From a virus (lineage: Duplodnaviria; Caudoviricetes), in the IMG/VR virus record IMGVR_UViG_3300049846_000828, positions 1-52,289 of that record: DNA of 52,289 bases, one strand, 5' to 3'. Under the pieces are notes generated by a model. The model saw only the letters and a list, made by a program, of their open reading frames with translations. It had not been told where the DNA came from and searched no databases. The translations under genes were made by a program, and so were the position numbers. Each line of letters opens with the position of its first letter. Within the stretch, counting starts at the first letter, position 1. Below are positions 22,044 to 52,289 of the stretch, piece by piece.

Positions 22044-22062
22044 AACCCCACAAGGAGAACTC

Positions 22063-22509
22063 ATGCCGCCTGTCTGCAATATGCACCAGCTCGTCGAGCG
22101 CCACACCCGCTGCATCAACTTCCTTCACGAAGTGCCGCACGGCGTCACGTTCGATCAGGTTCGCGAAAATGCCTATTGGGCCAATGCCTGGAAGCGCTTC
22201 CAAGGCAAGGAGATGTCGACCGTCGACTTCATTGCAGAAGACGGCTCTTGGGAAGCTCAGGTTCGCATTGTCCGTGTGACGGAAGGCAAGGTCGAGTTCC
22301 GAGTTCTTCACGAATGGAAGGAAGAGGCCGCGATTTCCGAAGTGCCGAAAGGCTACCGCGTCGAGTTCATCTCTGAAAATGGATGGCGCGCATTCGACCC
22401 GAACAATGCGCTGGTCATCGACAAGCAGGCCCAACGCAATTGGGCGCTCGAAGCTGCCTTGGATCATGCGACAGCCGCGGCGCCAAAGCGCCAGAAGTCT
22501 GCCGCCTAA
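22063..22509 (+). CDS. Hypothetical protein
   Basis: AAGGAG RBS before MPPVCNM. Confidence 0.7.
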   Translation: MPPVCNMHQLVERHTRCINFLHEVPHGVTFDQVRENAYWANAWKRFQGKEMSTVDFIAEDGSWEAQVRIVRVTEGKVEFRVLHEWKEEAAISEVPKGYRVEFISENGWRAFDPNNALVIDKQAQRNWALEAALDHATAAAPKRQKSAA

Positions 22510-22524
22510 AGGAACGTCCCCGAC

Positions 22525-24555: not shown

Positions 24556-24585
24556 TGGGTCATCTAGCAGGGAAAGCAGCCTGAC

Positions 24586-33055: not shown

Positions 33056-36035
33056 CGCCAACCAACTGCCGACCAGGGCTTTTCAGCCAAGCTCCGGGTC
33101 GATCAGTGTCAAGACGCCGGACTATGGCGCTGTTGCTAGAGGCGCTGAAGCTCTTTCGTCTGGCGTCGATGCCATCAGCCGTGGCTTTCAAGCCAATCTC
33201 AAGGCCGAAGAAGAAATCGACGATTACGAGACCCGCAAGAACATTCTCGATTTCCGTCTGAAGACCGAGATGGAACTGGAGGAAATGAAGCGGGACATGC
33301 CGGCCGGTGGCGCCGGATGGACAGATGCATGGTCGAAGCACTTTGCCAAGCGGGCGGCTGAGTTTGTTGGCCGCGACGACCGCAACATCCCCATGACGCA
33401 GAGGGCCAAGGTCGGTCTGATCCTGAAGCAGCATGAGACGGGACTTGCAGAGCGGGCGCAGCGCTATGAATTGGCGGAGCGTGACAGGCAGCATGTCGAC
33501 AGTCTCGAAACCCAGCTCGGCACCTTGCGGGATGTGGTTGGCACCAACCCGGCACGCCGTGACGAGATGTTCGATGAGGGACGCAAGCAGATCGAGCTTT
33601 CGCGTATTCCGCAGCCGGACAAGCACCGCCTTCTCAAGAAATACGACAAGACGCTCGACCAGACGCAGGCGACCGCCCGCATTCTCGGCATGTCCAACGT
33701 CGAGGACCGCGAGGCATTCAGGAAGGAGCTGAGGCTAGATCAGGAAGACGCGCCTGTTGGCTCGAATGCTCATTCCGTTCTGACGTCTGGCGTTGCCAAG
33801 GGCAAGCCTGCCGGCTGGGCTGCAAGCGACCCGACATGGGCGAAGCTGTCGCAGTATGAGCGAGCAGCAGCCATGGCACTCATGGAAGCCGACGGGATGG
33901 ACCCGCAAGCGGCTCGTAATGCGCTCGGCGCCATGATTAATCGCGCGGCCAAGAACGGCGAAGACCTCGGCGCGCACGTTAGCCAGAAGATCTATCAGCC
34001 GACCATTGAGCCAGCACAGCAGCAACGGCTTTCGAAGATTCTGAACTCCAAGGCGTTCAGCGATTTGACGTCGTGGGCCGCACGCCGCGCCAAGGGCGAA
34101 GAGCCCGACCCCGTTCAGGGGGCTACGCACTTCCTTGCGTCTGAGAAGACGATGCTGGCGCTCGAGGCCAAGGAGCCGCAGAAATACCGCTCGTGGCGCA
34201 AGTGGACCGGCTTTGACGGGACCGAATACAAAGGCGTCATCACGCGCGACGGCAGCCATGCGTTTCTAGCTCCTGAAGGTGCCAGGACTGAAGATGGCGT
34301 GGCCACGGTCGAAGACCCCAATGCCCCGCGCAAGCCCTATTCCAATCTCACGCTGATGGAGCGCCGCGAGATCTGGAACAAGGCCGACACGGAATGGAAA
34401 AAGAAGATCGGGGAAGCCGACACGCTCATCAAGCATATGCGCGAACGCGCGGTGAATGGCGAGCTGCCGCCCGACGTCGAAATCAACGCCATTGCCGAAC
34501 GGGTCAAGAAGTATGGCGATGAGGGCTTAGCCTCTCGCTTCTCATCCATGGTCGGTTTGGCCGATACGATCAACCGCATCCACAACAATCCTCCGGCAGC
34601 CGGTGAGGCATATGTCCGCCAGGTAAGAGCGGCTATCTCCGACGCCCAAGGCGGGCGGATGACCGAAGAGCAGATGACCACGCTCAAGGCGATGGAAAAG
34701 GCCGTCGAGGTCAACCGCAAGAACACCAACGAAGATGCATTCGGTTGGGCTGCCAAGCGCGGCATGGAGGTTCCAACGGGGGAACCGGTAGCACCAGGCG
34801 CCACGGATGAACTCGGTCAGCCCATGGCGCAACCGACGCGCAGGATCGTTGCCAAGCCGATCGACTTCAACCCGGCCAACAAGACGTTGGATGTGGACCT
34901 CGCTGATCGGTTTAATTCCGCACGTGATCTTGCCCGCTATCAGGGCCAGCCCATTCAGGTGTTCACCAAGGGTGATCGTGACGCTCTTAGGGATTTCATC
35001 GGCCGCGGTGGTCCGCCAATGATTTATGTGCTCTCGAAGATCGTCGAGCATGGCGGTGACGATGCGCTAGATGCCATCCAAGAGTTCTCGAAGGATGCGC
35101 CGGAAGCGCTGATGATTGGGAAGCTCGTGCAGGAGGGGGGAGATCCCTACCTTATCAACACGGCTGCCGCTGAAATCCAGAAGCGCGCGAAGGACGGCGA
35201 GAAGTACATCAACAAGGTCGACAAGAAGCTTGCCGAGCCCGATGTGGCGGCATTGATGCCAGCGCTGCAGATGACCCCCGGCATGGTCGACCCGGTCCAG
35301 CACATGACCAATCTGCTCTACAACTTCGAGCACCGCCGGCAGGGCAAGGACCAGTTCGATAGCAAGCTCTACGTCGACACGATGCGCAAGGTGTTGGGCG
35401 AGCGCAAGGACGCCAAGGGCAACGTCTACGGCGGGATTGGCACGCAGGGCGGATCGTGGGGCTTCGACGGCAAATGGTCAAGCTATGTGCAAGTTCCAGG
35501 CGAGATCAAACAGAACTCTTTCGACGAGATGGTCAACGCCATCCGCGTCGAAGACTTCAACGGCAACATGCCTGTTGACGACGAGAAGAAACCCCTGAGC
35601 CTTCGCGAGATCCAGACCGCGACTTGGCGTAGTCTGGGCAATGGCCGCTATGGGCTGATGATGGGGACTTCGGCAAATGGGCGCGAGCAGTTCGCCTTGG
35701 ACGTCAATGGCAGGCCCTATGTGCTCGACGTCAAGCCGATGCTCGGCAATATCCGGACGCGCAAGCCTGAGATCTTCGATGTATCCGGGCAGATGATGCG
35801 CTTGAGCGAAAACCAAGACGGCGGCGACTTCGAACAGCTTGGCTCGGTCATGGCTGGAATCGATGGGCTTGCCAGCTACACGCCTGGTCCAGTGCAGAGC
35901 GACAACATCCAAGATAGGCGGAAGCAGGACGCCGATGGCGTCTATGACAGTAGTTGGACCCGGAGCCAGCAGAAGCTACCGCGCGCCGAAAACGCCCCGC
36001 GTGAGTTCCAGAACATCATCCCGAGGCTGAACTAA
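33039..36035 (+). CDS. Internal virion protein (gp15-like) with SleB/Hydrolase_2-like muralytic domain
   Basis: MALMEADG...AMINRA...DPVQGATHF...DGSHAF at about 33850-34270. Confidence 0.75.
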   Translation: MPRLPDANQLPTRAFQPSSGSISVKTPDYGAVARGAEALSSGVDAISRGFQANLKAEEEIDDYETRKNILDFRLKTEMELEEMKRDMPAGGAGWTDAWSKHFAKRAAEFVGRDDRNIPMTQRAKVGLILKQHETGLAERAQRYELAERDRQHVDSLETQLGTLRDVVGTNPARRDEMFDEGRKQIELSRIPQPDKHRLLKKYDKTLDQTQATARILGMSNVEDREAFRKELRLDQEDAPVGSNAHSVLTSGVAKGKPAGWAASDPTWAKLSQYERAAAMALMEADGMDPQAARNALGAMINRAAKNGEDLGAHVSQKIYQPTIEPAQQQRLSKILNSKAFSDLTSWAARRAKGEEPDPVQGATHFLASEKTMLALEAKEPQKYRSWRKWTGFDGTEYKGVITRDGSHAFLAPEGARTEDGVATVEDPNAPRKPYSNLTLMERREIWNKADTEWKKKIGEADTLIKHMRERAVNGELPPDVEINAIAERVKKYGDEGLASRFSSMVGLADTINRIHNNPPAAGEAYVRQVRAAISDAQGGRMTEEQMTTLKAMEKAVEVNRKNTNEDAFGWAAKRGMEVPTGEPVAPGATDELGQPMAQPTRRIVAKPIDFNPANKTLDVDLADRFNSARDLARYQGQPIQVFTKGDRDALRDFIGRGGPPMIYVLSKIVEHGGDDALDAIQEFSKDAPEALMIGKLVQEGGDPYLINTAAAEIQKRAKDGEKYINKVDKKLAEPDVAALMPALQMTPGMVDPVQHMTNLLYNFEHRRQGKDQFDSKLYVDTMRKVLGERKDAKGNVYGGIGTQGGSWGFDGKWSSYVQVPGEIKQNSFDEMVNAIRVEDFNGNMPVDDEKKPLSLREIQTATWRSLGNGRYGLMMGTSANGREQFALDVNGRPYVLDVKPMLGNIRTRKPEIFDVSGQMMRLSENQDGGDFEQLGSVMAGIDGLASYTPGPVQSDNIQDRRKQDADGVYDSSWTRSQQKLPRAENAPREFQNIIPRLN

Positions 36036-39000
36036 TGAGCACTGCGATCGCCTGGGGCAACTGGGAGCCGTACAAGGCCAAGCGTGAAGTCTCGGCTGCC
36101 GATATGTTCAATACCGAGTTCGAGCGCCAGATGAAGGTCGACAACGCGGTGCGGTCCGGTGAGGACATCGTCGCGGAGTTCGACAAGCGATCCGACGAGA
36201 TCAAGAAGGTCATCGGCGTCGACCTCGGCAATCCCCTGCGTCTGCCGGTCGAGCCAGCCCAGACCGATGCCATGGGTGGCGTTATGTCACCCGGTGGCAT
36301 GTGGGCAGATCACGTTGCGGCCTACAACACGAAGCTCAAGGAACTTGCTCAGAAGCATCCCGAGCATGCGACGATCATTCGGGCGGATGAGACACCGGAT
36401 CTCATCGTCGCCAAGCGCAAGCAGGGTTTGGAACAGCGCTCTGCCGACCTGACCGAGCAAGCCGGGTTGATCGAAGGCCGTGAAATCCCCGTGATTGGAC
36501 GGGTGCCCGTTGTTCGGGACGTGGCCGCGCTTGGCCGCAACCTTGTCGTTCACCCCATCAACACGCTCGCCCAGTTCGGCGGCAGCCTCTACGCGCAAGC
36601 GCATGACCCCGTGGAAGCGGGCATGAGCCTTCTGGGCTTTGGGGCTGGCAAGGCTGCCAATTCGATCCTGAAGACGGCACTGAAGAACGCGGCGTCGAAT
36701 GCCGCGATGGAAGCGATGATGCAGCCGCTTCGCCAGGAGCAGCGCAAGAATGCTGGCCTCGACTACGGCTGGGAACGCGCCCTGATGAACATCGAGGGGG
36801 CGGCGGCGGCTGGCGCTGTGCTCGATGCCGCGGTGCGTGGGCCGTATCGAGCAGCAATTACCCGCATCGGGCGGGATGTTCCGGAAGGGCAGATGTTCTC
36901 CCGGCAGGGCCGCGGCGGCTGGCTGACCGATGCCATCCCCCAGACCGAACCGATCAAGCCGGTCGTTCGGGAACAGATCACCCCGGAAGAGCTTGAGAAG
37001 GCACGGGCGGGAGATATCACGGCCGTCGAATCCATCGCCCGCAAGACGGGGGCGATTGAGGATCCGACCGTTAAGGGTCTGCTCGATTACGCCAAGACGG
37101 GCGCTGTGATTGATGACGCCATGGTCGCACGCTTCAAACAGATGGGCATCGATCACGGGGAGGGGATGCACATGCTCTCCAACCTCATCGGCATGGAGGG
37201 GAAGGGCTATGTCCGGGCACCCGATCCGATTCCGGAAGCCAGGGCGGCGCTGGACGAAGCCGGTGCGGCAGAGCTTGCCCCTCGGGTGCAGGAGATCAAC
37301 CAACGCATCGCAGAAGCCCCACAGGCGATCCGTGAGGCCGTCCAGGCTGGAATTGGGGCTGGACTACCGGAAATCGTCAAGGCAGCCCGTGCGGCCCTCT
37401 CAGGCGATCTGGACGGCATGCGGAAAGCCATTGACGAGGCAGGCGGGGCAGACCTTGTGGCCGATCGCGTCACGGTGCACACCGCAACCAATCCGATAGC
37501 CGTGGCGAAAGCTCTGCGCCGGTCACCGGAAGCGATGGATTCGAGCGTCCCGATGCGGACGGACTTCATGCGCACGGCACGGGCCTTGGCTGCCCTGGAT
37601 GATGCCGCCTTCGACATGGTGCTACGCGGGCAAGCTCACCCGCTCGAAGCACAGCTTGTGGCTGATATGGTTCCGCCCGGTCATCATGCCGAGACGCTAC
37701 GGAAGATTTCATCCGCCAACTTCCGCACTATTGGCGAAGTCAAGGAAGCGGTTCGCGAGCTTGCACCAGAGGACAGCGCTGCCCCGCAGACGGCAAGCCG
37801 GATTGATGATCCCTCGGGACCGCAGGCCAAGGAGCAGGTTGCGGATTTGGAGAAGTCTCTTGCGGCTGAGGTCGAAGAAGCTACGGCACCGATCAAGCGC
37901 CGTGAGGAACTGGAAAGCAAGGTCGAGACCCTGAAAGGGGAGATTGCGAAGCTCGAAGAGCAGCAGGGCAAGGCAACTCCTAAGCCAAGTGCAGAGCGCG
38001 AATACATCGACCCAGAAACGGGACAGACGGTTCCGTCGGGAGACATTGAAGCCATCGCAAACATGGCTGAATACGTCGCAGAAATGCGCCGCGTGCCGAA
38101 GCCCGAAAGTCTTACTTCGTTCTTGATTAAAAGTGGTCGCGTCAAAGACGAGTCAGGTGAACTCACCACCATGCTTGGCGGGAAAAGCCGTCAGCTAATA
38201 TCTGGCAAAGGATTGCCGCTAGATAGGGCGGCTTTGCTGGCGTGGGAGCAAGGGTTTATCGATAGTGCGGAGCGCCCAACGGTTCGGCAACTGTTAGAAC
38301 TTCTTGACGAAGATATCCGAGGCAACCGCGTTGTGCGGTTGGCGGATCGTTCTATAATGGACGACCTCGCGGTTGCCCGCGAAATGGAGACTGACCTTGA
38401 AAGACTCGGACTCAAAGCAGGCGCAAGCCGACAAGAAATCGAAGCGTACTTCTCCGGCGGAAATCGCCAAGGCGGGGAGGGCAGCAGTGCAACGCCTTCT
38501 CAGCGAGCGATCGAAGGGGAGCAACTTTATGCGCTCAGTGAGCCCCAAAAAGAGCGACTAGATAGAGCGAGGCAGGCCGGGTTCGATACGTCTCGCGTGC
38601 TTTACCACGGCACGGGGAACGAGATTGACGCATTCAGTTTGCGCCGCGCGCAAGACAAAGAAGGACGAGCACGCGGCCTTGGTCTTGGCAAAGGCAAGAT
38701 TTATCTAACGGCCAACCAATGGTCAGCGAGCGAATGGGCGTTGCAAGCGCCATCGCGCGGCCTTGGCAGTGCGCCAAATGTCATCCCGGTCTTTGTTCGC
38801 GGCAAGCTCCTTGACGAAAAGGCATATCAGGCGAAGTTCGCTGAGTTAGCTGGCGGTCGCCAAATCTGGGACTCGACGCTGACGATGCTGGAGCGTGATG
38901 CGCTCATTGCTAAAACCGACGAGTGGGCGAAGTCTGAAGGCTATGCTGGTATCCAACAAGCCTATCGCAATCAGGCTGGCGACATTTTGGAAGTTGGCCA

Positions 39001-42000
39001 AGTTGCAATTTTTGACCCCTCCAACATCCGCAGTGTCAATGCCGACTTTGATCCTGCAAAGTCATCCAGCCCGAAGCTGATGGCAGCCCTCTCGCCAGAC
39101 CGTGGCAAGCCATCTCTCGACGAAACCGCTCTATCCCCCGCCGACAAGAAGCTACTCGACAAGATCACCGAACGCACCGGGCTTGAACCAGACCAGATCG
39201 CAGAGCAACGCGCTCAAGGCCAGTCCTTTGGCAAACGCGCAGATGCTGCACTCGACAAGGCTATCCGGTTTGAGAAGGACGAGAAGGCCGCGACGGATAT
39301 TGCCACCAAGCGGGCAGAGCTTCGCCAGGCCGAACGCGAACTCGAACAGCTTCAGATGGAGCAGGCCCGCACCATTGGCGATTCAGCCATGTTCCGCATG
39401 GTCATGGAACGGGCAGCGATCCAGCGCCAGATAGACGTCAGGCGTGCCATTGATGACGCCCTGAGCCTGGGAGACCGCATTCTCCCCGAGAACACCCGCG
39501 TCGAGGTCCGCACGGACGAGATGCGTGATCCGGTTTCCGGTGCTCTGCTTGATGCCTCGAGCGACACCATGACGGGAGATATTGCACTCGCCTCCTATGC
39601 CATGAATCCGGCGGGACGGATGGGCCATGAAGGGCTTCATACCCTTGTCACCAAGGGGCACGTCTCACCGCAGGAAGTGAAACTGCTTGCCAAGCTCGCC
39701 CGTGAGCGCGGCTTGTTCAAGGATGAGGCCCGCTATCGCGAAGCCTATGCTGGCAGAGACAACCTAGACGCCCTGATCGATGAGGAAGCCGCGGCACATG
39801 CCATTGAGGCCCGCATCAACGGTACGGATATCGGCCCTGCCAACACGATGGCAGACCGTATCAAGCAATTGATTGAGCGGATCAGGAACGCTCTTGATGG
39901 CTACGGCTTCAAGACGGCGGATGATGTTGCGAGAGCGATCATTGACGGCGAAGCGGCGCATAGGACCGCACGGGCTGAATGGATGCGCGGTGAAGTCCGA
40001 GAGAAAATGCGGGAAGCGGCTGACCGTGGTGTGACGCTGCCTGACGGAACGAATGTCAAAGGCGTTCCGCTCTATGCCATCCGCGCCTATCACGGCTCTC
40101 CGCATGACTTCGACAGGTTCGATCTATCAAAGATCGGGACCGGCGAGGGTGCACAGGCTTACGGGCATGGGCTGTATTTTGCTGAGAATGACGATGTGGC
40201 TAGACAGTATTTGCGAAAGTTGGCCGATGCCGATGCAACGCCTGGGTGGTTCCGCGATCAATCTGGCGATGTCGATTTTTTCAACGCTCCGACCGGCCTA
40301 GCGCTGTTGCGCGGTGAGCGCCGCGCAAACCTAACGAATGCGGAGCTAATTCAATCTGCACAGCAAGAATTGGCGAGGGCGCAAGGGGTCAAAAACCAGC
40401 AATTGCGTGATGTGCAGACGCGAAAGGCGCAGGCTGTTCTTGATTATGTTCAGGGCAATCCGACGCTGCGTTTTGACTGGAACCCGGCGACCGGCCGCAT
40501 GTACGAGGTCAACATCAAGGCCGATCCGAACGATTTCTTGGATTGGGATAAGCCGCTAAGCCAGCAGTCAGAGAAGGTGAGGGGGGCGGCATTTGGGACC
40601 GTTCCGTCCGACAAGCGTGCCTACTTTGAGAAATGGGCAAGCGATCCTGAGGTAACAGCGCGAGATGTTTACGAGCAGATTGGCGGCGCTATAGCCCCAG
40701 GCGACGGGAAGACGCACGCATCACCAAAAGTCGCCTCTGCCCTCCGCGAAGCAGGCATCCCCGGCATCAAATACCTAGACCAAGGCTCTCGTGGTGCTGG
40801 TGAGGGATCACGAAACTATGTCGTGTTCGATGACAGCCTGATCGAGATTGTCGCCAAGGACGGGAAGCCGGTGAAGTCGGAGGCCATGTTCGCCATGCGC
40901 TCTGAACCCCTAGACATGAGCCCGGAAGCGAGGAAAGCAAGAGCGGAGCAGATGGGGTTTGATACGAGTAAGGTCTGGTATCATGGGGCATCCAGGTCAG
41001 ACAGAATTGCTGACGCTGGCAAGTTTGATCCGAAGCGCGCCACATCAGGACCGATGGCGTTTTTTACAGACGACCCGACGATTGCGTCGAACTATGCAAA
41101 GGGCAAAGCAGACACATCTCTCAACGACGACGGTGACATCTCCAAGTACTTTACTGTCTCGCCAAAAGACGTTGGAGATGCCAGGGGGCGAACGCCGTAC
41201 AGTGTTGAACAAACATGGTATCGACTGCCGCCTGAACAGCGATCGCAAATTGCGGCCAGGGCAAAGCGCGTTGGGTACGAAAACCCACAAGAGGCAACTG
41301 GACCATTGACGCTTCACAGCGAAGGTACAGATGCGTCTCTCAATGGGGATCATTTCGATTACATCTTGAGGACTGAGGCGCGTGGGAACGTCCTCACGGC
41401 GCTTCGCATCATGTGGCACGACAGCGGCGAACTGTTCGGGCAACCGGAAGCGATGATGGATATCTGGCGCTTAGCTGGATATCCCCACAAGATCAGCGAA
41501 AAGACGGCTCCATGGTATGAAGCGCAGGGCGTTTTGCCGGTCTACATGAAGATGAAGAACCCGCTAGACACCAGCGATATGGCATCGCTTTCGCGCGTAG
41601 CAGACGCACTAGACGAAGCATTTAAGCGTGACCGCACTAGGCTCAAAGAATACGGTGCTGATGGCTGGGATAAAAACTCGCGATATACGCCGAGGGACTG
41701 GGTGAAAACTCTCAAAGACGACATTGCGGCAGGCAAAAGCAGCTTCGTCTTCACGTCCATCCCCGACAAAGTGACTGAGCAACTGCGGGCGCTCGGATAC
41801 GACGGGATCATTGATCGCGGCGGTAAAATGGGTGGTGCTGGACACGACGTTGCGATCCCGTTTGATCCGCAACAGGTCCGTTCTGTAAACGCTGAGTTTG
41901 ATCCGTCTCAATCAGGATCAGCAAAGCTGCTCGCAGCCATGCGCTCTGAAGACGCCCCAGAGATCCCACCTCTCAAATCAGACATGGCCATTGTAGACCG

Positions 42001-42040
42001 TCTGAACTCCCTTAAAGAATTGATCGAGGCTTGCCGATGA
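36035..42040 (+). CDS. 2001-aa polyvalent internal virion protein: three ART-PolyVal-like ADP-ribosyltransferase domains plus an HExxH metallopeptidase motif
   Basis: LYHGT/AYHGS/WYHGA starts, G(Y/I)xGI and V.FD endings, and HEGLH at 39626-39640 with downstream EEAAA. Confidence 0.8.
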   Translation: MSTAIAWGNWEPYKAKREVSAADMFNTEFERQMKVDNAVRSGEDIVAEFDKRSDEIKKVIGVDLGNPLRLPVEPAQTDAMGGVMSPGGMWADHVAAYNTKLKELAQKHPEHATIIRADETPDLIVAKRKQGLEQRSADLTEQAGLIEGREIPVIGRVPVVRDVAALGRNLVVHPINTLAQFGGSLYAQAHDPVEAGMSLLGFGAGKAANSILKTALKNAASNAAMEAMMQPLRQEQRKNAGLDYGWERALMNIEGAAAAGAVLDAAVRGPYRAAITRIGRDVPEGQMFSRQGRGGWLTDAIPQTEPIKPVVREQITPEELEKARAGDITAVESIARKTGAIEDPTVKGLLDYAKTGAVIDDAMVARFKQMGIDHGEGMHMLSNLIGMEGKGYVRAPDPIPEARAALDEAGAAELAPRVQEINQRIAEAPQAIREAVQAGIGAGLPEIVKAARAALSGDLDGMRKAIDEAGGADLVADRVTVHTATNPIAVAKALRRSPEAMDSSVPMRTDFMRTARALAALDDAAFDMVLRGQAHPLEAQLVADMVPPGHHAETLRKISSANFRTIGEVKEAVRELAPEDSAAPQTASRIDDPSGPQAKEQVADLEKSLAAEVEEATAPIKRREELESKVETLKGEIAKLEEQQGKATPKPSAEREYIDPETGQTVPSGDIEAIANMAEYVAEMRRVPKPESLTSFLIKSGRVKDESGELTTMLGGKSRQLISGKGLPLDRAALLAWEQGFIDSAERPTVRQLLELLDEDIRGNRVVRLADRSIMDDLAVAREMETDLERLGLKAGASRQEIEAYFSGGNRQGGEGSSATPSQRAIEGEQLYALSEPQKERLDRARQAGFDTSRVLYHGTGNEIDAFSLRRAQDKEGRARGLGLGKGKIYLTANQWSASEWALQAPSRGLGSAPNVIPVFVRGKLLDEKAYQAKFAELAGGRQIWDSTLTMLERDALIAKTDEWAKSEGYAGIQQAYRNQAGDILEVGQVAIFDPSNIRSVNADFDPAKSSSPKLMAALSPDRGKPSLDETALSPADKKLLDKITERTGLEPDQIAEQRAQGQSFGKRADAALDKAIRFEKDEKAATDIATKRAELRQAERELEQLQMEQARTIGDSAMFRMVMERAAIQRQIDVRRAIDDALSLGDRILPENTRVEVRTDEMRDPVSGALLDASSDTMTGDIALASYAMNPAGRMGHEGLHTLVTKGHVSPQEVKLLAKLARERGLFKDEARYREAYAGRDNLDALIDEEAAAHAIEARINGTDIGPANTMADRIKQLIERIRNALDGYGFKTADDVARAIIDGEAAHRTARAEWMRGEVREKMREAADRGVTLPDGTNVKGVPLYAIRAYHGSPHDFDRFDLSKIGTGEGAQAYGHGLYFAENDDVARQYLRKLADADATPGWFRDQSGDVDFFNAPTGLALLRGERRANLTNAELIQSAQQELARAQGVKNQQLRDVQTRKAQAVLDYVQGNPTLRFDWNPATGRMYEVNIKADPNDFLDWDKPLSQQSEKVRGAAFGTVPSDKRAYFEKWASDPEVTARDVYEQIGGAIAPGDGKTHASPKVASALREAGIPGIKYLDQGSRGAGEGSRNYVVFDDSLIEIVAKDGKPVKSEAMFAMRSEPLDMSPEARKARAEQMGFDTSKVWYHGASRSDRIADAGKFDPKRATSGPMAFFTDDPTIASNYAKGKADTSLNDDGDISKYFTVSPKDVGDARGRTPYSVEQTWYRLPPEQRSQIAARAKRVGYENPQEATGPLTLHSEGTDASLNGDHFDYILRTEARGNVLTALRIMWHDSGELFGQPEAMMDIWRLAGYPHKISEKTAPWYEAQGVLPVYMKMKNPLDTSDMASLSRVADALDEAFKRDRTRLKEYGADGWDKNSRYTPRDWVKTLKDDIAAGKSSFVFTSIPDKVTEQLRALGYDGIIDRGGKMGGAGHDVAIPFDPQQVRSVNAEFDPSQSGSAKLLAAMRSEDAPEIPPLKSDMAIVDRLNSLKELIEACR

Positions 42041-45005: not shown

Positions 45006-45533
45006 GTGGCCAGCATTGGCTTTATCCCGACCAAGACCAGCATCGAGGTTCGCGAGCCCGACGGCGACGCCGGGACGATTCCGGCCTCCACCCCGTCCAA
45101 TGCGGGGTGCATGACGGCAGAGCAGGCCAAGCAGCTTTTGGAGCTTTGGCAGTGGCACCGGACGCATGTCGGCACTGGCGCACCGGTCATCATCGAGCAC
45201 GCGGTCGACACGTCGGACTTCGTCAACCGGCTCGAGCTCAAGGCCATGATTCAGCAGTTGCCGCGGGCGTTGGACGCCACCCCGCAGATCACGGCATTGC
45301 GCGCGCGCATCGATGATCTATCGCAGCGGCTCAACAGTGAAGCTCGATCAGCGCTTCCCGCGCCGGCAGATGGATCGATCAAGGCCGTCGACGAAGCCGC
45401 CCGGAATGTCCTTGACGTCGTTCTCGTTCAATACGAGGCGCTGGACGAGCGTGTCCGCCGTCTCGAGGGGATCATTGAAACGCTGAAGCAGGTTGCCGAG
45501 GCGAAGGCTGAAGAAGCAGCGAGGGCGGCATGA
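45006..45533 (+). CDS. Hypothetical coiled-coil protein
   Basis: GTG after GGAG, coupled to the lysozyme gene. Confidence 0.65.
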   Translation: MASIGFIPTKTSIEVREPDGDAGTIPASTPSNAGCMTAEQAKQLLELWQWHRTHVGTGAPVIIEHAVDTSDFVNRLELKAMIQQLPRALDATPQITALRARIDDLSQRLNSEARSALPAPADGSIKAVDEAARNVLDVVLVQYEALDERVRRLEGIIETLKQVAEAKAEEAARAA

Positions 45534-46294
45534 ACCTTTCAGACAAGGGCCTCGACTTCATCGTCAGCTTCGAAGGGCTTCTAAAGAAGCTGCCCGATGG
45601 CAGGTACATCGCGTACCGCTGCCCGGCAAACGTGGCCACCATCTACGCAGGCTGCACCGAGGGCGTCACTGATGGAATGATCGTGACGGAGGATGAGGGC
45701 AAGGCGATGTTCCGCCGTGAACTCGCCAAGCACGAAGCTGCCGTCCGCCGTCTCGTGACCGTCGATCTGACACAGAACCAGTTCGATGCGCTGGTGTCGT
45801 TCTCCTATAACGTCGGGGCCGGAGCGCTCCAGAAGTCCACCTTGTTGAAGCACTTGAACAAGGGCGATTATGCCCGTGCCGCTTCGCACTTTGCCGACTT
45901 CAAGAAGGCGGGCGGCAAGGTGCTAAAGGGTCTCGTCCGTCGCCGCGCCGCTGAAGCTGCGCTGTTCATGGATGACGATGAGCCGACCGACATGGTCCAG
46001 AAGGTGGACAAGCCTGATACCAAGATGAAACTGGCTGAGGTGGTCGGCAAGGTTGCGCTTCCGACCGGGGCTGTAGCTGGCACCGGAGCGACGGTCGCGA
46101 CCAAGGAACCAGCAAAGATCGACCCCAAGGCTGCAATCGCCAAGGGCAAAGAAACTCGCGAAGTCATTGAGCAAGCCAAAGACCTCGGGATCTTCGCTCG
46201 AGATATGGGCAAGTGGGCCATGGGCGACGGCATGTTCATTGCGGGCGGGATTCTAGCGGCGGGTGCCGCGGCTTGGTGGTGGAGCAAGCGATGA
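45530..46294 (+). CDS. GH24 phage lysozyme (endolysin) with C-terminal TM segment
   Basis: FEG...AYRCPANVATIYAGCT, QNQFDALVSFSYNVG, GLVRRRAAEAALF and tail FIAGGILAAGAAAWWWSKR. Confidence 0.92.
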   Translation: MNLSDKGLDFIVSFEGLLKKLPDGRYIAYRCPANVATIYAGCTEGVTDGMIVTEDEGKAMFRRELAKHEAAVRRLVTVDLTQNQFDALVSFSYNVGAGALQKSTLLKHLNKGDYARAASHFADFKKAGGKVLKGLVRRRAAEAALFMDDDEPTDMVQKVDKPDTKMKLAEVVGKVALPTGAVAGTGATVATKEPAKIDPKAAIAKGKETREVIEQAKDLGIFARDMGKWAMGDGMFIAGGILAAGAAAWWWSKR

Positions 46295-46674: not shown

Positions 46675-46935
46675 ATGCCATTCCACCGACTGCCAGACCA
46701 CATCCGCAAGCACCCGGACGTGCAGGACGCATGGCATCACCACCACGCGGAACGCATCGACAAGATCGAATCCCACCAATCGAAGAACGATGGTCTAGGC
46801 CACCTCACGCACGCCCTGTTCGCTGGGAAGGTCAAAACCCCGTGGGGAGATCTCCCGCTCCCGTTGGCCATCATAGCGGCTGGTTACACCATCTACAAAA
46901 ACCCGGACTTGCTTTTAGGGCTGTTCGGGCCGTGA
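46675..46935 (+). CDS. Small membrane protein (holin candidate)
   Basis: C-terminal hydrophobic helix, last gene of the lysis cassette. Confidence 0.55.
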   Translation: MPFHRLPDHIRKHPDVQDAWHHHHAERIDKIESHQSKNDGLGHLTHALFAGKVKTPWGDLPLPLAIIAAGYTIYKNPDLLLGLFGP

Positions 46936-47044
46936 CGTGGTGTGTTGCCATCGTGATGGTTGGCTTGGCTGCTGGTAAAGTCGTCTCCACGAAGATGGAG
47001 AGGGGCCAGCACGTCAGGTTAGACTTACGAGGAAGCTAGAGGGC

Positions 47045-47064
47045 TCCCGAAGTTTGCTTCGGGA
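47045..47064. terminator. Hairpin between convergent operons
   Basis: TCCCGAAG-TTTG-CTTCGGGA. Confidence 0.5.
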
Positions 47065-47117
47065 ACATGCCCCAGAAGCGAGGAAACATAGGCGCTTTGC
47101 ATAGCTCAGATCGACGG

Positions 47118-47339
47118 TCAAATGTCAGGATTTGCCGTCGCGATCTGGCTGACTGCAGATCGCAAGTTGTTCGGCAGTGTCATATCCCGGTTGTATCGGC
47201 GCATTTGAACGGGCTGGCTCTCGCGAGAAGGGTATTTCGCATCCAGCTCGGCTTCGATTTCGTCGGCGGCGTCGACGGCCAGCGCCAACAGTTGGCGCAG
47301 ATCCTCCAGAGGCACCGATAGACAAACGACATCCGACAT
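47118..47339 (-). CDS. Hypothetical protein
   Basis: MSDVVCL after AGGAG. Confidence 0.6.
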   Translation of the reverse strand: MSDVVCLSVPLEDLRQLLALAVDAADEIEAELDAKYPSRESQPVQMRRYNRDMTLPNNLRSAVSQIATANPDI

Positions 47340-47359
47340 TGACGGACTCCTATTCCCTT

Positions 47360-47527
47360 TTATGGCTTGGCCGGCGGCCAAGTAAATGACTTGCGGCACT
47401 TGCGCGACGCGACCCACTGCGCTTTCTCCGGCGTGCACCCTTTGCGAACGTAGTGCACGGACCATGCAATCTGGCGCAGCCGTTCGTTGTCGTTGCAAAC
47501 GTACGATAGCAGCATGTCTGGAGGCAT
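47360..47527 (-). CDS. 55-aa hypothetical protein
   Basis: Hand-translated MPPDMLLSYVCND...; fills the operon gap. Confidence 0.45.
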   Translation of the reverse strand: MPPDMLLSYVCNDNERLRQIAWSVHYVRKGCTPEKAQWVASRKCRKSFTWPPAKP

Positions 47528-47540
47528 GGCGTATCGGGTC

Positions 47541-47744
47541 CTAGTTTGTCACAAACTTCATGAGATTGACCGCCGCGCTATCGACGATCGACTGCTGGCA
47601 GGTCGAGTGCCGAACATGCCACGACCCGTCATCCAGCAGCACAACGCAAACGACAGCACGCATGCGATCTGCATCGACCGCTAATGTCTCAATCACTTCT
47701 GCCGGCGTCGTCGATGCTGACCCAATTCGCACGATGTCTGCCAT
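47541..47744 (-). CDS. Hypothetical protein
   Basis: 67 aa with AGGGG RBS. Confidence 0.6.
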   Translation of the reverse strand: MADIVRIGSASTTPAEVIETLAVDADRMRAVVCVVLLDDGSWHVRHSTCQQSIVDSAAVNLMKFVTN

Positions 47745-47839
47745 CGTCTACCCCTGTTCCTTGTGTTTGCAGAGACAGCACCGCCGACCGGGGCGGCACC
47801 AGATCGTGAAGCATATGAACCGCAGCATCTTGGTCTCCA

Positions 47840-48067
47840 TTATTGAACTCGTTCGAGGATGCCTGTGTGCGGGCACCATTGGTAGCCATCTGGCGCAAGC
47901 ATGTCGGGTTGCGATTGGGAAAGCGTTTCAACGATCTGCCTTAGCTGCGGATCTGGTGGTGACGGCATGTGCTGCAAGCAACGCCACCGCCCCGGCTGCC
48001 CTTTGGCGTTAACGCGGTACAGGTCGACGCCATCCCTAGGCTTCCCGCCGCACGTCTCGCACTGCAT
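47840..48067 (-). CDS. Small zinc-finger-like protein
   Basis: CETC...LYRVNAKGQPGRWRCLQH. Confidence 0.65.
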   Translation of the reverse strand: MQCETCGGKPRDGVDLYRVNAKGQPGRWRCLQHMPSPPDPQLRQIVETLSQSQPDMLAPDGYQWCPHTGILERVQ

Positions 48068-48078
48068 CTGCCTCTCCC

Positions 48079-48276
48079 CTATTCCTCATCTGCCATGCGT
48101 TCAATGGCAGCATCCCAGTGAATGTAGTCACCGGCTCGCGGCAGCAGCAGGTTCATCGCCGTATCCGTCATCATCAGGCGATCCGGCAGATGATAAAAAA
48201 TCTGGTAGCAGCACCATCCGAGCGACCATGTCACCCATCCGTGCCAGCCTTGCCACCGTGACCAGTCCATAGTCAT
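48079..48276 (-). CDS. Trp-rich hypothetical protein
   Basis: GAGG RBS, directly downstream of the resolvase-like gene. Confidence 0.55.
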   Translation of the reverse strand: MTMDWSRWQGWHGWVTWSLGWCCYQIFYHLPDRLMMTDTAMNLLLPRAGDYIHWDAAIERMADEE

Positions 48277-48283
48277 GCCTCCT

Positions 48284-48862
48284 CTAATCTCGCCCGCCAC
48301 GCGGGCCGAACTCGTCATAATATCGGTCTTTCGACCATCCCGGCGGGCCTGCCGCAATTGCGGCTTTCACGCTCTTATTGCGAAGATCGAACCACGCAAT
48401 CCGCGCCGCTTCGACTTCGCCGGAAATGTCACGCGGCTTGCGCCCGCCCTTTAGGCCATTCTTCGCGCCCGAGTGACCGCGCGCCGCCGACGCCAGACGC
48501 TCAATCACTTCCTGCACGAACAGGTCGCGCTGCTCTGGAATGGCAGTGTGCCAGCGCTTCGCCAGATCATACGCCGATGCGCCCCGCGCTTCGATAGCGC
48601 GCAAGGTTTTCCAGAACATTGATCGCGGCTTGTCGTTCGTGCGTGACTTCGCGGGCACTAGCAGGTGGCCTTGCGTCACCACCAGCACATCGCCACGGCG
48701 AAGCGATGCCACGACATCGGCAACCGTCACGCCGGTCTTTTTACTGACCTCGTACAGTCCGCGCTCTGGCACGCCGAACTCGCGAAGCAGCTTCACTTGC
48801 GCCGAAGCCGGGAAGCGCTTCATGTCGTGAGCAAGTCCGCGTTTCTGTCTTTCTGTGAACAT
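48284..48862 (-). CDS. Degenerate serine-recombinase (resolvase/invertase)-like protein lacking canonical catalytic motifs
   Basis: AQVKLLREFG, SLRRGDVLVV, IEARGA and GLKGGRKPR align with resolvase features. GYARVS appears as GLAHDM and DRLxR as HLLVP. A candidate TTGATC-N17-CATTCT promoter suggests a leaderless start at 48862. Confidence 0.6.
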   Translation of the reverse strand: MFTERQKRGLAHDMKRFPASAQVKLLREFGVPERGLYEVSKKTGVTVADVVASLRRGDVLVVTQGHLLVPAKSRTNDKPRSMFWKTLRAIEARGASAYDLAKRWHTAIPEQRDLFVQEVIERLASAARGHSGAKNGLKGGRKPRDISGEVEAARIAWFDLRNKSVKAAIAAGPPGWSKDRYYDEFGPRGGRD

Positions 48863-48962
48863 GTTTCGCAGAATGCACGAAGCCGGTTGCGCGATCAAGT
48901 AGAATATGCTTTATTCACACCATGAGCGGCGACGTTGCCGCGTGAGATTAGAGGCCGGAACG

Positions 48963-49529
48963 ATGGCGCGTCACGATTGCGATATCTGCCGAGGATCGGG
49001 GACAGTCAGGCTTCCCGTCTATCATCGCGTATCTGTGCGATATGAATCGGACAGCAAAATATCGCCGTCATCTGTTGAGACGGCGCGCGCCTTTCCGTGC
49101 CCGGAGTGCGCACCAAAGGTTGATCACGAGCGCATTGCACTTGTCTACAGTGAGGTTCAAGCGTCCGCTCAATACAGCGCAGAACCCGAATATCAGGCTG
49201 CGATATTGCGTGATGCTGCCCATGCAATCGTCGATGAATTGCTGCGAGGCGGCTACATCAAGCAGGTCGTGGGCGATCTCGATAATATGTCTATGAGTAA
49301 CCCGATCCGGTGCACGCTTGGCGTCGTGTCGCCGTCCGTTGTTGCGACGATGGAAGCTAGGATTGCAGAGCGCCAGGGCGAAGTTGCGGATCGAGTGGCG
49401 GAAGAGGCTAAGCGCTTGATCGGTGTTTGGGGGTCGCACTACGGGCACACGACGTTAACAAAGGATCAAGCGTGCCGTTCTGTCTCTGAGGCGCTTGACG
49501 CCATCAAATTGAAGATGAAGCAAAAGTAG
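48963..49529 (+). CDS. Array ORF 1, DnaJ-like zinc-finger motif
   Basis: CDICRGSG...CPEC, starting after degenerate site TAGAGGCCG. Confidence 0.75.
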   Translation: MARHDCDICRGSGTVRLPVYHRVSVRYESDSKISPSSVETARAFPCPECAPKVDHERIALVYSEVQASAQYSAEPEYQAAILRDAAHAIVDELLRGGYIKQVVGDLDNMSMSNPIRCTLGVVSPSVVATMEARIAERQGEVADRVAEEAKRLIGVWGSHYGHTTLTKDQACRSVSEALDAIKLKMKQK

Positions 49530-49545
49530 AAAAAGGGCCGGTCGC

Positions 49546-49770
49546 ATGACAAACGAGCAGCGCAAGCTACTGGAGCCGTATGCGATGTTGCTCGCGCGGG
49601 CGCATCAGCGCATTGTGGACATGAGCGACGAGGATTTGGCCGCGATGGATGCGGCGATCAAGTCGGCAACATCGTCAAACTGCTGGTATGCAATCTACCA
49701 AGTTGCGAAGTTGCTGGAAAACGAGGTCGCTGGGCAGAAGTTGCTTCGCGCGCGCAAGCCAGCAGCATAA
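49546..49770 (+). CDS. Array ORF 2, hypothetical
   Basis: 74 aa after site 49532. Confidence 0.75.
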   Translation: MTNEQRKLLEPYAMLLARAHQRIVDMSDEDLAAMDAAIKSATSSNCWYAIYQVAKLLENEVAGQKLLRARKPAA

Positions 49771-49798
49771 AGAACGAACAGCACAAAGGGCCGGGACG

Positions 49799-50074
49799 AT
49801 GGCAAGCATGAAGGTGTCACTGGACGGCCTGATGGTCGGCGTTGAGCGTGCCCTGCGGTCAAGCAAGGAAGATATGGCGTGCGCCTATGCGTACTCGCTT
49901 ATGGAATTTGCTGAAAATCTTCGCCTCGTTAAAGAAGGCAAGGCGACGCCAGATGAGCTATTCGCCCTTTACACGATGGGCGAGAAGGAAGGCGACGGCC
50001 TGACGAAACGCGTCGAAAAGCGGTACTACGACTGTATGCAAGATGAACCGGAAGATGAGGACGAGGCGGCATGA
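49799..50074 (+). CDS. Array ORF 3, acidic hypothetical
   Basis: MASMKVSLDG after site 49785. Confidence 0.75.
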   Translation: MASMKVSLDGLMVGVERALRSSKEDMACAYAYSLMEFAENLRLVKEGKATPDELFALYTMGEKEGDGLTKRVEKRYYDCMQDEPEDEDEAA

Positions 50075-50349
50075 CGGACGTTCCATCGGAAGACGCGACA
50101 ACCGCCTACCGGGCGACGTTCGAGCAAGAGATTGACGATATCGCGCGCCGCATCGTTGCGTCTGTCACGCCAGCCCCACACCCGCATGCGGGTGGCATTC
50201 TGTTGCTTTGTGCGACCCGCTTGATCGGCCACCTGTCTGGTCATCTGGATAACGTCCGCGCCGCCACTGGCAAAGATCGGTATGGCGCGGAAGCATCGAT
50301 GCACGAGGCGTACAGACTTATTGATGCCGGACGCCCCCAACCGAATTGA
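50071..50349 (+). CDS. Array ORF 4, hypothetical (ATGA-coupled to ORF 3, no site)
   Basis: 92 aa with GAGG RBS. Confidence 0.7.
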   Translation: MTDVPSEDATTAYRATFEQEIDDIARRIVASVTPAPHPHAGGILLLCATRLIGHLSGHLDNVRAATGKDRYGAEASMHEAYRLIDAGRPQPN

Positions 50350-50367
50350 TCAAGAAAGGCCGGGACG

Positions 50368-50625
50368 ATGCTTCGCAAAGTAGATTACAGCAAGCCGATC
50401 ACGGGCGACGACATTCGGGAGATTGTCGCGTTCCTGGCGAGCCTCGACATGCACACCTCGCTAGAGGCGTGGCAGTATCCCGGCCAGACGCTCTTGCGTG
50501 CTGCCGACGATATCGACCGCTTGCGCACTCTTGAGGCTCGCGATGCGAACGCCGCCGCGACGCTTGCCGATGCTTACGGGCCGGACTGGCGCGGCGTGCT
50601 GAAATCAATCACTCCGCAAGTGTAG
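50368..50625 (+). CDS. Array ORF 5, hypothetical
   Basis: 85 aa after site 50354. Contains RAADDIDRLR. Confidence 0.75.
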   Translation: MLRKVDYSKPITGDDIREIVAFLASLDMHTSLEAWQYPGQTLLRAADDIDRLRTLEARDANAAATLADAYGPDWRGVLKSITPQV

Positions 50626-50641
50626 AAAAAGGGCCGCACAC

Positions 50642-50929
50642 ATGACTGATACAAGCGGGGAAGCCGTTATTGAAGACGGACACATTGTGATCCGGTTTCG
50701 GATCGATGCGCTACCAACGGCGGTTGCCGGTGCCGCAGCGCTTGGCACACTTGACGCGCCGTTCAAGGTGACGAACGCGGAAGCGTTTGCAAAAGACCTC
50801 GTGTCGCAACTCAACGAGGAAGACGAGCAGGGCACAACGATGATCCATCGGATGATGGACGAAGCCTTTAATCAGGCAGCTGACCAAGGCGCGTTCGGAA
50901 CCAGTATCAGCGACGACGACGAAGACTGA
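50642..50929 (+). CDS. Array ORF 6, acidic hypothetical
   Basis: 95 aa after site 50628. Contains FKVTNAEAFAKDLVSQLNEEDEQGTT. Confidence 0.78.
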   Translation: MTDTSGEAVIEDGHIVIRFRIDALPTAVAGAAALGTLDAPFKVTNAEAFAKDLVSQLNEEDEQGTTMIHRMMDEAFNQAADQGAFGTSISDDDED

Positions 50930-50947
50930 GGAAAAAGGGCCGCCCGG

Positions 50948-51232
50948 ATGCCTGCCGCGTACTACAGCTACGACGAAGCGAACAAGCGCAAGCGGCTATG
51001 GAACGGCGCTTGGTCAAAGGTGATTTGGGTTGATGACGCGGGAGCGAATGTGCTCGCTGTCATTCACTGGATGGGCGGCGGCTACAAGGTTGTGGGGCGC
51101 TACCTGCGTGATGAAGATCGACGGGCGGTGGCGCACGCGGAACGGTGCTCCGCAGACGGATACTGCCCGACGAATGCCGATGACGGCGACGGCTACCGCA
51201 AGGCATTGGCTGACGAACGCAACCGCACATAA
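50948..51232 (+). CDS. Array ORF 7, hypothetical
   Basis: 94 aa after site 50934. Confidence 0.72.
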   Translation: MPAAYYSYDEANKRKRLWNGAWSKVIWVDDAGANVLAVIHWMGGGYKVVGRYLRDEDRRAVAHAERCSADGYCPTNADDGDGYRKALADERNRT

Positions 51233-51244
51233 AGGGCCGCGTGC

Positions 51245-51467
51245 ATGAATGACGATCTGAAAGCGGCCGCGCGTGAAGGCTTCACCGAAGGCTGGCGAAG
51301 CCGCCCATATGGTGCCGATGCTTGGCGCGCTGGTTCATCCGCTGTGCGCCGTCGCCCTTGTTGGCGAGGAAGGTCTTTGCCGCATGCCGTATGACGCGGT
51401 TAAGAACATTCGCCGCAGCGACGTTGGCGACCGCATCATCCGTCGCTTGATTGACGCTCACGCTTGA
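51245..51467 (+). pseudogene. Array ORF 8, apparently frameshifted near 51293-51300
   Basis: MNDDLKAAAREGFTEGW(R) starts after site 51231. A different frame (EAAHMVPMLG...IDAHA*) ends at the next site. Confidence 0.55.
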
Positions 51468-51485
51468 ACACAAAGGGCCGCACGC

Positions 51486-51725
51486 ATGAAATTGAAGTGC
51501 ACCATTCGCAGCGATGCATTCGTCGAACCGTGCGACGGCTTGCGAAAACTCACTGGGTCGGCAGTCGATCTGGTGCAGTACACCAACTTCAAGACGATGC
51601 AACCGTCGCGCTCGTTCGTCACAATCAAGAGCGGCGATTTCCGCAAGCAAGGGCTTGTGGCGAACTTCTGCCCGGTGTGCGGCGAGCGGATCAATCATGC
51701 AGTCGAAGGCGCCCACGCGGCGTGA
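51486..51725 (+). CDS. Array ORF 9, zinc-ribbon protein
   Basis: C...PC...NFCPVCGERI after site 51472. Confidence 0.78.
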   Translation: MKLKCTIRSDAFVEPCDGLRKLTGSAVDLVQYTNFKTMQPSRSFVTIKSGDFRKQGLVANFCPVCGERINHAVEGAHAA

Positions 51726-51742
51726 ACACAAAGGGCCGGGCT

Positions 51743-52168
51743 GTGGAGCAAGACTGGAAAGTGCTACGCGAAGCCGCCCGTCTAATCGGTTGCGCTGCTC
51801 ATGCGGCTTACATGTGCACACTGCGCGGCGACGTTCCTGCGGGGTCGTTAGACAATTTCAAACCCCAGGTCGGGCGCATGGCCATGGAGGTAAGCTCGTT
51901 CTACCACGCTTTTGATCCGGCTGGTCCGACGCGCGGTTACGACCCGCTCAACTCGATTGGCGTACTGGATCGGATCGCGTGGGAGCCTGTGATGACTCCG
52001 GAGAAATGGAACGAAGGCGTCGAGGACAAAGCCGATTGGGAGACGCCGTCGAATGAGTGCGTTTACTATCTGCGGACGCTTGATGGGCGAGAGTTTCGGT
52101 GGACGAACAGTAAGCTGATCCTTGTCCCCGACACGCCGCAATTTAAGGCAATGAACAACCGCACATAA
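51743..52168 (+). CDS. Array ORF 10, hypothetical
   Basis: GTG 4 nt after site 51730. Contains YYLRTLDGREFRWTNS. Confidence 0.75.
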   Translation: MEQDWKVLREAARLIGCAAHAAYMCTLRGDVPAGSLDNFKPQVGRMAMEVSSFYHAFDPAGPTRGYDPLNSIGVLDRIAWEPVMTPEKWNEGVEDKADWETPSNECVYYLRTLDGREFRWTNSKLILVPDTPQFKAMNNRT

Positions 52169-52289
52169 AGGGCCGGACCAGTGACCAAGCTCACCGAAGA
52201 GTGTCAGCTAAACGAGCGTGAGCTTGCGAGGGCATCAGAAATCGCCAACGCAACATTGCGTGCGACTGCTGGCCAGCAGCGCGGCATGC
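52163..52289. repeat. Second copy of the 127-bp terminal overlap
   Basis: Identical to 1-127. Confidence 0.95.

Follow-up and report, generated by a model that had tools for sequence, protein, structure and literature searches.

A resolvase-like phage protein without catalytic residues as a candidate regulator of variable accessory genes

What is the role of a gene that resembles a resolvase, is transcribed away from a row of small phage genes, and appears to have lost the residues with which resolvases recombine DNA? The question is raised by a locus of the IMG/VR virus record IMGVR_UViG_3300049846_000828, a complete genome of 52,289 bp with a direct terminal repeat of 127 nt, the whole of which was analysed and is referred to here as the window. 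The gene encodes P0001, a protein of 192 amino acids (aa), and is separated by a gap of 100 bp (48863–48962) from the first plus-strand gene, which begins with the ATG at 48963 (Table 1). A first-pass annotation had described a 192-aa open reading frame (ORF) facing away from the array over such a gap, which was confirmed, coordinates included, by translation. It had also likened the layout to that of an integron, leaving three roles for the protein: an atypical recombinase, an architectural or site-binding factor, or a regulator co-opted from a resolvase. The last of these is the one that fits best, given the operon of its own and the conserved, putatively leaderless and back-to-back promoters described below, whereas the recombinase reading did not stand. 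P0001 is therefore proposed, with a probability of about 0.55, to derive from a resolvase and to regulate transcription at an accessory-gene hotspot.

The derivation of P0001 from a resolvase is supported by structure comparison and by profile alignment. The AlphaFold2 model (mean predicted local distance difference test score, pLDDT, 78.7; predicted template modelling score, pTM, 0.61; alignment depth of 5 sequences) consists of a beta-alpha core, a long helix (residues 109–128), a disordered hinge (130–142) and three C-terminal helices (147–185). A Foldseek search of the Protein Data Bank (PDB) with this model gave 18 matches at an expectation value (E) ≤0.001, the top 11 rows all being gamma-delta/Tn3 resolvase (E 2.5e-7 to 1.5e-5), followed by Sin, Gin and the TP901-1 integrase; against PDB entries holding the catalytic domain alone, the template modelling (TM) score by target was 0.81–0.84, with a root mean square deviation of 2.9–3.0 Å. 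The search of a viral structure library returned the same resolvase answer, and PF00239 clusters took 9 of the 10 rows of an ESM Atlas structure search. P0001 itself lies below the PF00239 family threshold, and its homology becomes visible only via the family profile. The profile of the five closest sequences led to 326 representative proteins at E ≤0.001 (119 at ≤1e-10), from which an alignment of 113 sequences (A2) was composed, with P0001, two close relatives and 110 of the 150 matches listed; the 40 matches excluded were picked by eye and were mostly partial, without the N-terminus. The profile of A2 aligned with a canonical plasmid resolvase at an hhalign probability of 95.3% (E 2.2e-8, 152 columns), the reference being the resolvase of an annotated plasmid whose own PF00239 match has an E of 1.9e-28. 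The earlier description of the protein as resolvase-like was thus borne out, since fold prediction and Foldseek placed gamma-delta/Tn3 resolvase first and hhalign agreed. Among the A2 members, 20/113 match PF00239 themselves, and in 7/113 (P0010, for example) a C-terminal T5orf172/MUG113 domain is fused to the dead-resolvase body. A homodimer prediction for P0001 (score 0.50; one control, 0.67) was used neither for nor against any reading.

The Arg/Asp active-site residues of resolvases are, in Tn3 numbering, R8, R45, D67, R68 and R71. In the hhalign alignment of P0001 with the canonical resolvase, the motif Arg (R8 type) is replaced by H12, the nucleophilic Ser falls on a one-residue gap beside M14, the R45-type Arg of the S-G-x-x-x-x-R-P loop lies within a 4-residue deletion, and the Asp-Arg-x-x-Arg of L-D-R-L-x-R corresponds to H66, L67 and P70, after which P0001 carries an 8-residue insertion. 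Where the canonical motif reads G-Y-x-R-x-S, P0001 has G-L-A-H-D-M, and no Ser, Thr, Tyr or Cys is found in residues 9–17 (GLAHDMKRF). Every peptide that the first-pass annotation had singled out (SLRRGDVLVV, IEARG, GLKGGRKPR, GLAHDM and QGHLLVP) was present in the translation, and its statement that the catalytic motifs are replaced was upheld, the Ser, three Arg and one Asp being substituted or deleted. Judged from its sequence, P0001 has lost catalysis. Across the 113 sequences of A2, the Ser column holds L in 24, H in 20, S in 20, T in 12 and M in 10, and the complete Arg/Ser/Asp/Arg/Arg set occurs in only 2 members.

In addition, the Gly-Gly-Arg hinge, also reported earlier as retained, was found so, and the C-terminal three-helix domain is kept too: G140 is present in 108/113 and R141 in 101/113 sequences, and the hinge is followed by the three predicted helices (pLDDT 66–80; no HTH_7 match). 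Other well-kept positions of A2 are Q22 (110/113), R55 (102/113), and W157 and G186 (at least 90% each). The substitutes M14, H66 and P70 are invariant in the closest relatives of P0001, and the ratio of nonsynonymous to synonymous substitution rates (dN/dS) ranges from 0.06 to 0.39 over 9 related gene pairs, which were taken from the fetched loci of family members and not from the closest relatives of P0001. Since the substitutes are invariant and dN/dS is low, P0001 is regarded as a maintained non-catalytic derivative and not as a decaying gene.

The true start of P0001 is the ATG at 48862, because residues 1–13 are kept in relatives and make the first beta-strand of the model; an alternative TTG at 48898 would give 204 aa, and the gene call stored with the record for this locus (P0002) begins only at Met14. 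P0001 is the first gene of a minus-strand operon reaching down to 47118, in which the membership of the last three ORFs is probable. The gene of a 63-aa Trp-rich protein belongs to this operon, since its Shine-Dalgarno (SD) sequence directly adjoins the P0001 stop; the protein, whose translation is coupled to that of P0001, gave a single weak PHROG match, "inhibitor of host Lon protease" (E 0.0056). For the three small minus-strand ORFs in 47118–48067 no family matches were obtained.

The control region was compared over the loci of relatives, which comprised five viral loci, 21 metagenome loci (several of them mutual duplicates) and the GenBank phage MW202785.1; in an alignment anchored at the start codon, 14 loci were aligned and 16 displayed. 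All 14 aligned loci have, in the same register, bases resembling (C)TTGAC at about -39 to -34, a block resembling (G)CATTTT or ACGTTT at about -14 to -8, and a start codon 6–7 nt after this -10-like block with no SD sequence. The P0001 gene follows the same scheme, its ATG lying 7 nt past the -10 hexamer without an SD sequence. These blocks are kept although the proteins are only 33–57% identical at the lowest, and they would constitute a promoter giving a leaderless mRNA. A divergent promoter is also predicted, on the basis of a reverse-complement block, (G)CTAyTTTC, which is conserved in related loci and faces the divergent gene; its -35 box and that of P0001 stand back-to-back. TTGAC...GTCAA dyads upstream of the homologues were considered as operators and rejected, their spacing varying (1, 2 or 5 nt); they are explained by the two back-to-back -35 boxes. 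The divergent genes themselves differ from locus to locus, every one, so that regulator and bidirectional promoter are constant and the cargo on either side is variable. A terminator scan of 46900–49100 gave 1 terminator-like site, at chance level, and no cluster or operator-like repeat of the intergenic 11-mers was found elsewhere in the genome, including near attP. One 11-mer, GAGATTAGAGG, occurs at 48280–48290 (minus strand) and at 48944–48954 (plus strand), before the SD sites of two genes, one downstream of P0001 and the other the first array gene; relatives carry TGATTGGAGGCC at the corresponding position.

The gap also contains a GC-rich near-palindrome, GCGGCGACGTTGCCGC, whose presence, noted earlier, was verified by direct reading. 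Such a site is not unusual alone, the 52-kb genome having 17 near-palindromes of 16 bp with at most one mismatched pair. Among the related loci, a GC-rich dyad starts 78–81 nt upstream of the homologue start in 7/17 and is imperfect in an eighth; as background, a GC-rich stem of at least 5 bp was present anywhere in 371 of 2000 random 110-nt windows. The conserved dyad is always situated between the divergent -10 block and the SD sequence of the divergent gene, and its arm sequences vary between loci. A single compensatory pair distinguishes the dyads of loci L011 and L016, whose proteins are 97% identical with identical C-terminal helices, and L012 and L019 have the same last helix with a dyad in L019 only. 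Resolvase sites, of 25–34 bp, are much longer than the dyad of 15–16 bp. The dyad is therefore unlikely to be the operator of P0001, because its arms compensate with the helix unchanged, it is missing despite a shared helix, and it is too short; the earlier suggestion to look for binding at the palindrome at 48926 loses its appeal, arms and presence being independent of the C-terminal helix. We think that the dyad would rather be a hairpin-forming element of the leader, an interpretation to which the folding energies give no support: over 8 loci, the leader hairpin folded no better than shuffles (z from -0.77 to +0.48), being present in the minimum-energy fold at 5/8.

According to the interpretation of P0001 as a regulator, the protein goes back to a small serine recombinase of the resolvase/invertase type, has lost its chemistry, and retains the dimer-type core, the Gly-Arg hinge and a C-terminal helix-turn-helix (HTH)-like domain. 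Its function would most likely consist solely in sequence-specific DNA binding. Its mRNA would be leaderless, and the protein would attach to the region of about 100 bp that holds its own promoter and the back-to-back divergent one, and would set, probably repress, its own transcription and that of the flanking variable accessory genes. Its action would be that of Tn3/gamma-delta TnpR at res, minus recombination. Because conservation of the C-terminal helix is high throughout the family, the target should lie among the conserved promoter blocks; we infer DNA binding by P0001, the site bound, the sign of the regulation and the leaderless start from these features. Several findings weigh against this proposal. 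No family was matched by P0001 in Pfam at E up to 10, HTH_7 included, and a sequence-profile search of the PDB returned no resolvase, giving a chance match only (E 1.1). The model is built from a 5-sequence alignment, with the hinge (130–142) under pLDDT 50 and the C-terminal domain at 66–80. A strict sigma-70 scan of 46900–49100 found 0 promoters, and the -10 element of P0001 agrees with the consensus at 3/6 positions only. No binding site is identifiable, the conserved intergenic blocks coinciding with promoter elements, and the GC dyad does not follow the recognition helix. The nearness of P0001 to int and attP is compatible with a recombination role as well.

Another reading takes P0001 for an atypical, active recombinase shuffling the array at AAAGGGCCG sites, in the manner of an integron. 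Resolvase ancestry and the abundance of the motif speak for it, AAAGGGCCG being present in 10 exact copies, all on the plus strand, against 0.37 expected, a number reached in 0/100 shuffles. The unique copies are 9, because those at 5 and 52167 are the same copy in the terminal repeat. All 9 are on the coding strand, 4–5 nt ahead of the ATG or GTG that opens an ORF of 49–141 codons. The AAAGG of the motif is compatible with the 16S rRNA 3' end. Since each copy sits 4–5 nt before a start codon, the motif is interpreted as a translation-initiation context and not as a recombination site; it is an unusually uniform ribosome-binding context within one gene block, with the CCG extension retained. 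What the first-pass annotation had called a first, degenerate site is indeed present, with TAGAGGCCG at 48949–48957 matching the motif at 6/9 positions in the same register, 5 nt before the ATG, and is to be read as the ribosome-binding region of the first array gene. The likeness to integrons is only superficial: in both, a recombinase-like gene faces away from a series of small genes. IntI belongs to the tyrosine recombinases and P0001 has a resolvase fold, the only tyrosine recombinase of the window being its integrase. Structured attC sites, at least about 57 nt long, delimit the cassettes of integrons, whereas the array spacers measure 12–28 nt, too short for attC, and the repeated 9-mer is a ribosome-binding context. 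An Rfam scan of 46900–52289 found no family, and the array proteins had no informative family matches. The motif is not enriched beside homologues, with 0–2 copies per related locus, and the array genes are not conserved there, so that the expected association of homologues with motif-punctuated arrays failed to appear. The locus is present in contigs of three DNA runs, with no joints and no indels listed, and no variant array junctions were seen in the contigs of two other runs. With five to six catalytic residues gone and no candidate nucleophile in residues 9–17, the integron-like reading, and with it the proposed correspondence to intI, attI and cassettes, is close to refuted and retains a minimal probability.

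The remaining alternatives concern a protein without chemistry. Resolvase subunits on sites II and III of res play their part without catalysis, and P0001 might likewise be an architectural or directionality factor that binds near attP and assists or directs the tyrosine integrase of the phage, or some other recombinase. In at least five distinct lineages a tyrosine integrase is encoded no more than about 3 kb from the homologue, the probable attP and int of the window come just past the array, and the family searches found no recognisable Xis upstream of int. Such a factor is nevertheless unlikely: distance and orientation to int vary among homologues, P0001 has its own conserved bidirectional promoter module and is separated from attP by cargo genes, the intergenic 11-mers are not repeated near attP or elsewhere, and any gene of the interval between lysis genes and attP is close to int by default. 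It is decidedly unlikely that P0001 would be the master repressor of lysogeny or, in the manner of P22 immI/Mnt, a second repressor of immunity. Its putative leaderless-type promoter and its divergent layout are typical features of phage repressor genes, and the way in which it would act has a precedent. MrpR (YopR) of the Bacillus subtilis prophage SPbeta is, according to excerpts of its description, a master repressor with a tyrosine-recombinase fold and no recombinase activity (PMC10516654). A CI-like HTH_3 gene already occupies the canonical place by GcrA and the replication genes of the window, so that P0001 is probably not the main immunity repressor; moreover, the genes facing it are small unrelated ORFans, with no lytic regulator recognised by any library, and P0001 has no Xre-type HTH (HTH_3) match in Pfam. 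Very unlikely, too, is a decoy or dominant-negative subunit that would pair with active serine recombinases, whether encoded by the host, by plasmids or by rival phages, and so poison them. The core fold is kept, including helix 109–128, which is the dimer/tetramer interface in resolvases, and the gene has an accessory location, but the hinge and the C-terminal domain, which would be superfluous for a pure protein decoy, are among the best-conserved parts, and a conserved cis-regulatory module is present. Finally, the loss of catalytic residues might mark a decaying, functionless resolvase remnant, a reading of negligible probability that the selection data contradict: clusters of similar length number 326, the substitutes are invariant in the closest relatives, dN/dS is low and the promoter is conserved.

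In this context, the closest known counterpart of a resolvase-derived regulator is Tn3/gamma-delta TnpR (PF00239 + HTH_7), the best structural match of P0001. In both proteins, as far as P0001 is modelled, a core is followed by a long helix, a Gly-Arg hinge and a C-terminal domain of three helices, and both genes are divergent from a neighbour, with two promoters in a short intergenic region. Unlike TnpR, P0001 has neither the catalytic Ser nor the Arg/Asp pocket, has a 4-residue deletion and an 8-residue insertion, escapes Pfam, has no recognisable three-subsite res beside it, and belongs to a phage accessory region and not to a transposon. The P0001 locus would also resemble lambda cI-rex, P22 mnt/arc-ant and Aca/anti-CRISPR, in which a conserved gene for a DNA-binding protein lies beside variable small genes, with divergent or shared promoters; those regulators are of HTH, ribbon-helix-helix or Arc type, and P0001 is a resolvase derivative. 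The binding of TnpR at res autoregulates the divergent tnpR and tnpA promoters, as stated in the available extract of the source (PMC7157771). That recombinase folds have been turned into regulators by loss of function is already known, MrpR being an example as far as the excerpts on it go: it is a phage regulator whose recombinase fold has been stripped of recombinase function. Its fold is unrelated to resolvases and its repression is experimental, whereas the role of P0001 is deduced. Vaccinia virus F16 is listed as a "predicted inactive serine recombinase" in the part of the source available (PMC11980589); it differs from P0001 in being a protein of a eukaryotic virus that targets nucleoli, and the likeness is one of description and not of sequence comparison. 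A literature search covering main texts only, and thus no proof of absence, retrieved no paper on a phage family of Ser-less resolvase-like regulators or on this promoter module.

If the proposed role is true, P0001 would represent a clear case, in a bacterial virus, of a serine recombinase without chemistry retained as a DNA-binding regulator. Among serine recombinases it would be what MrpR is for the tyrosine fold, and it would preserve, like a fossil, the repressor function that in Tn3 resolvase is still combined with recombination. The leaderless back-to-back promoter module with its changing cargo would, in turn, provide a handle for finding phage accessory genes and a compact bidirectional switch. 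A wider and more tentative proposal, which we hold as doubtful, is that the Ser-less resolvase and the back-to-back leaderless promoters form a portable switch cassette, derived from the repressor half of TnpR/res, that would control hypervariable accessory islands (possibly of anti-defence or host-takeover genes) at the attP-proximal end in temperate phages of freshwater Alphaproteobacteria. Were that so, the cassette could point to new small effector genes through guilt by association, in the way that Aca regulators lead to anti-CRISPRs.

The family of 326 clusters is almost wholly metagenomic, and the sole name given in cluster look-ups is "hypothetical protein". P0001 had no match in PHROGs or NCBIfam, nor in a tblastn search of phage records; two scans of species-genome contigs and one of the metagenome scans found no relative, and the relative P0008 had no match among plasmid records. 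The member in MW202785.1 (1272–1844) bears the label "transposon gamma-delta resolvase". It is without the motif Arg and without the Asp-Arg-Arg residues, so that the label is probably a mis-annotation as an active enzyme. Its neighbours are small hypothetical genes, 4 of them divergent and 8 downstream. Since they are invisible to Pfam, PHROGs and NCBIfam, and one of them carries this label, the genes of the family are now unannotated or mis-annotated as active recombinases. Where the flanks of a locus were long enough for lysis and integrase synteny to be scored, the homologue followed the lysis genes and had a tyrosine integrase at a distance of no more than about 3 kb, as was the case for the L002 group, the L003 group, L004, L011 and L013. 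Apart from lysozyme and integrase, the neighbour genes of the window had no counterparts in the five viral loci. In L002, from a related phage, a transposase-like gene (6562–7827, plus strand; phrog_506, E 1.2e-94) lies 13 nt past the homologue, before the integrase.

The features of the window are collected in Table 1. The genome is that of a temperate podophage, since an integrase and head and podovirus-type tail genes are present in the family-search map, and the phage-encoded GcrA, a regulator linked with Alphaproteobacteria, points to an alphaproteobacterial host.

Table 1. Positions of the P0001 locus and of other features in the 52,289-bp window
Feature	Position	Strand	Basis and remarks
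P0001, 192 aa, resolvase fold without catalytic residues	48284–48862	-	ORF translation, model; TAG stop 48284–48286
Putative P0001 promoter	48870–48899	-	-35 CTTGATC 48893–48899, -10 GCATTCT 48870–48876
Putative divergent promoter	48887–48916	+	-35 TTGCGC 48887–48892, 15-nt spacer, GCTTTATTC 48908–48916
GC-rich near-palindrome GCGGCGACGTTGCCGC	48926–48941		Direct reading; predicted 5' leader of first array gene
Ribosome-binding region of first array gene, TAGAGGCCG + 5-nt spacer	48949–48962	+	Sequence reading
First array gene, 188 aa, CxxC motifs, no family match	48963–49529	+	ORF list, family searches
Array of small genes	49532–52289, on through terminal repeat to 493	+	ORF list, motif map
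63-aa Trp-rich small protein	48079–48270	-	AGGAGG SD at 48278–48283 abuts P0001 stop
Three small ORFs, probably rest of P0001 operon	47840–48067, 47541–47744, 47118–47498	-	ORF list
Probable attP core, tRNA 3'-half-like (T-arm + CCA end)	563–634	-	Sequence reading
Tyrosine integrase	1300–2355	-	phrog_1, E 1.5e-55
RecE-like exonuclease	5317–5982	-	Family searches
Erf-like annealing protein	5924–6673	-	Family searches
CI-like HTH_3 protein	7937–8305	-	Family searches; beside replication genes
GcrA cell-cycle regulator homologue	8965–9537	+	PF07750, E 7.7e-38; adjoins CI-like gene and replication genes
Replication-initiator-like protein	9817–10776	+	Family searches
Terminase, portal-type adaptor, major head, podovirus-type tail proteins	15293–28544	+	Family searches
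2001-aa protein, ADP-ribosyltransferase domain of polyvalent proteins (ART-PolyVal)	36035–42040	+	PF18760, E 1.2e-26; late-gene block
Phage lysozyme	45530–46294	+	Family searches

The tRNA-like stretch sits between the last small array gene and the integrase and is probably the attP core, judging by its resemblance to a tRNA 3' half. The Rfam tRNA match at 568–634 is weak (17.8 bits, E 0.47, under the gathering score), and ARAGORN found no tRNA at the stretch. Because this attP-like stretch lies just past the last small gene, the P0001 locus belongs to the interval between lysis genes and attP, the usual home of accessory genes in temperate phages. Between attP and the integrase, a 73-aa ORF (726–947, plus strand) encodes a ClpX C4-type zinc finger that stands on its own (PF06689, E 8.8e-16) and might modulate the ClpX of the host.

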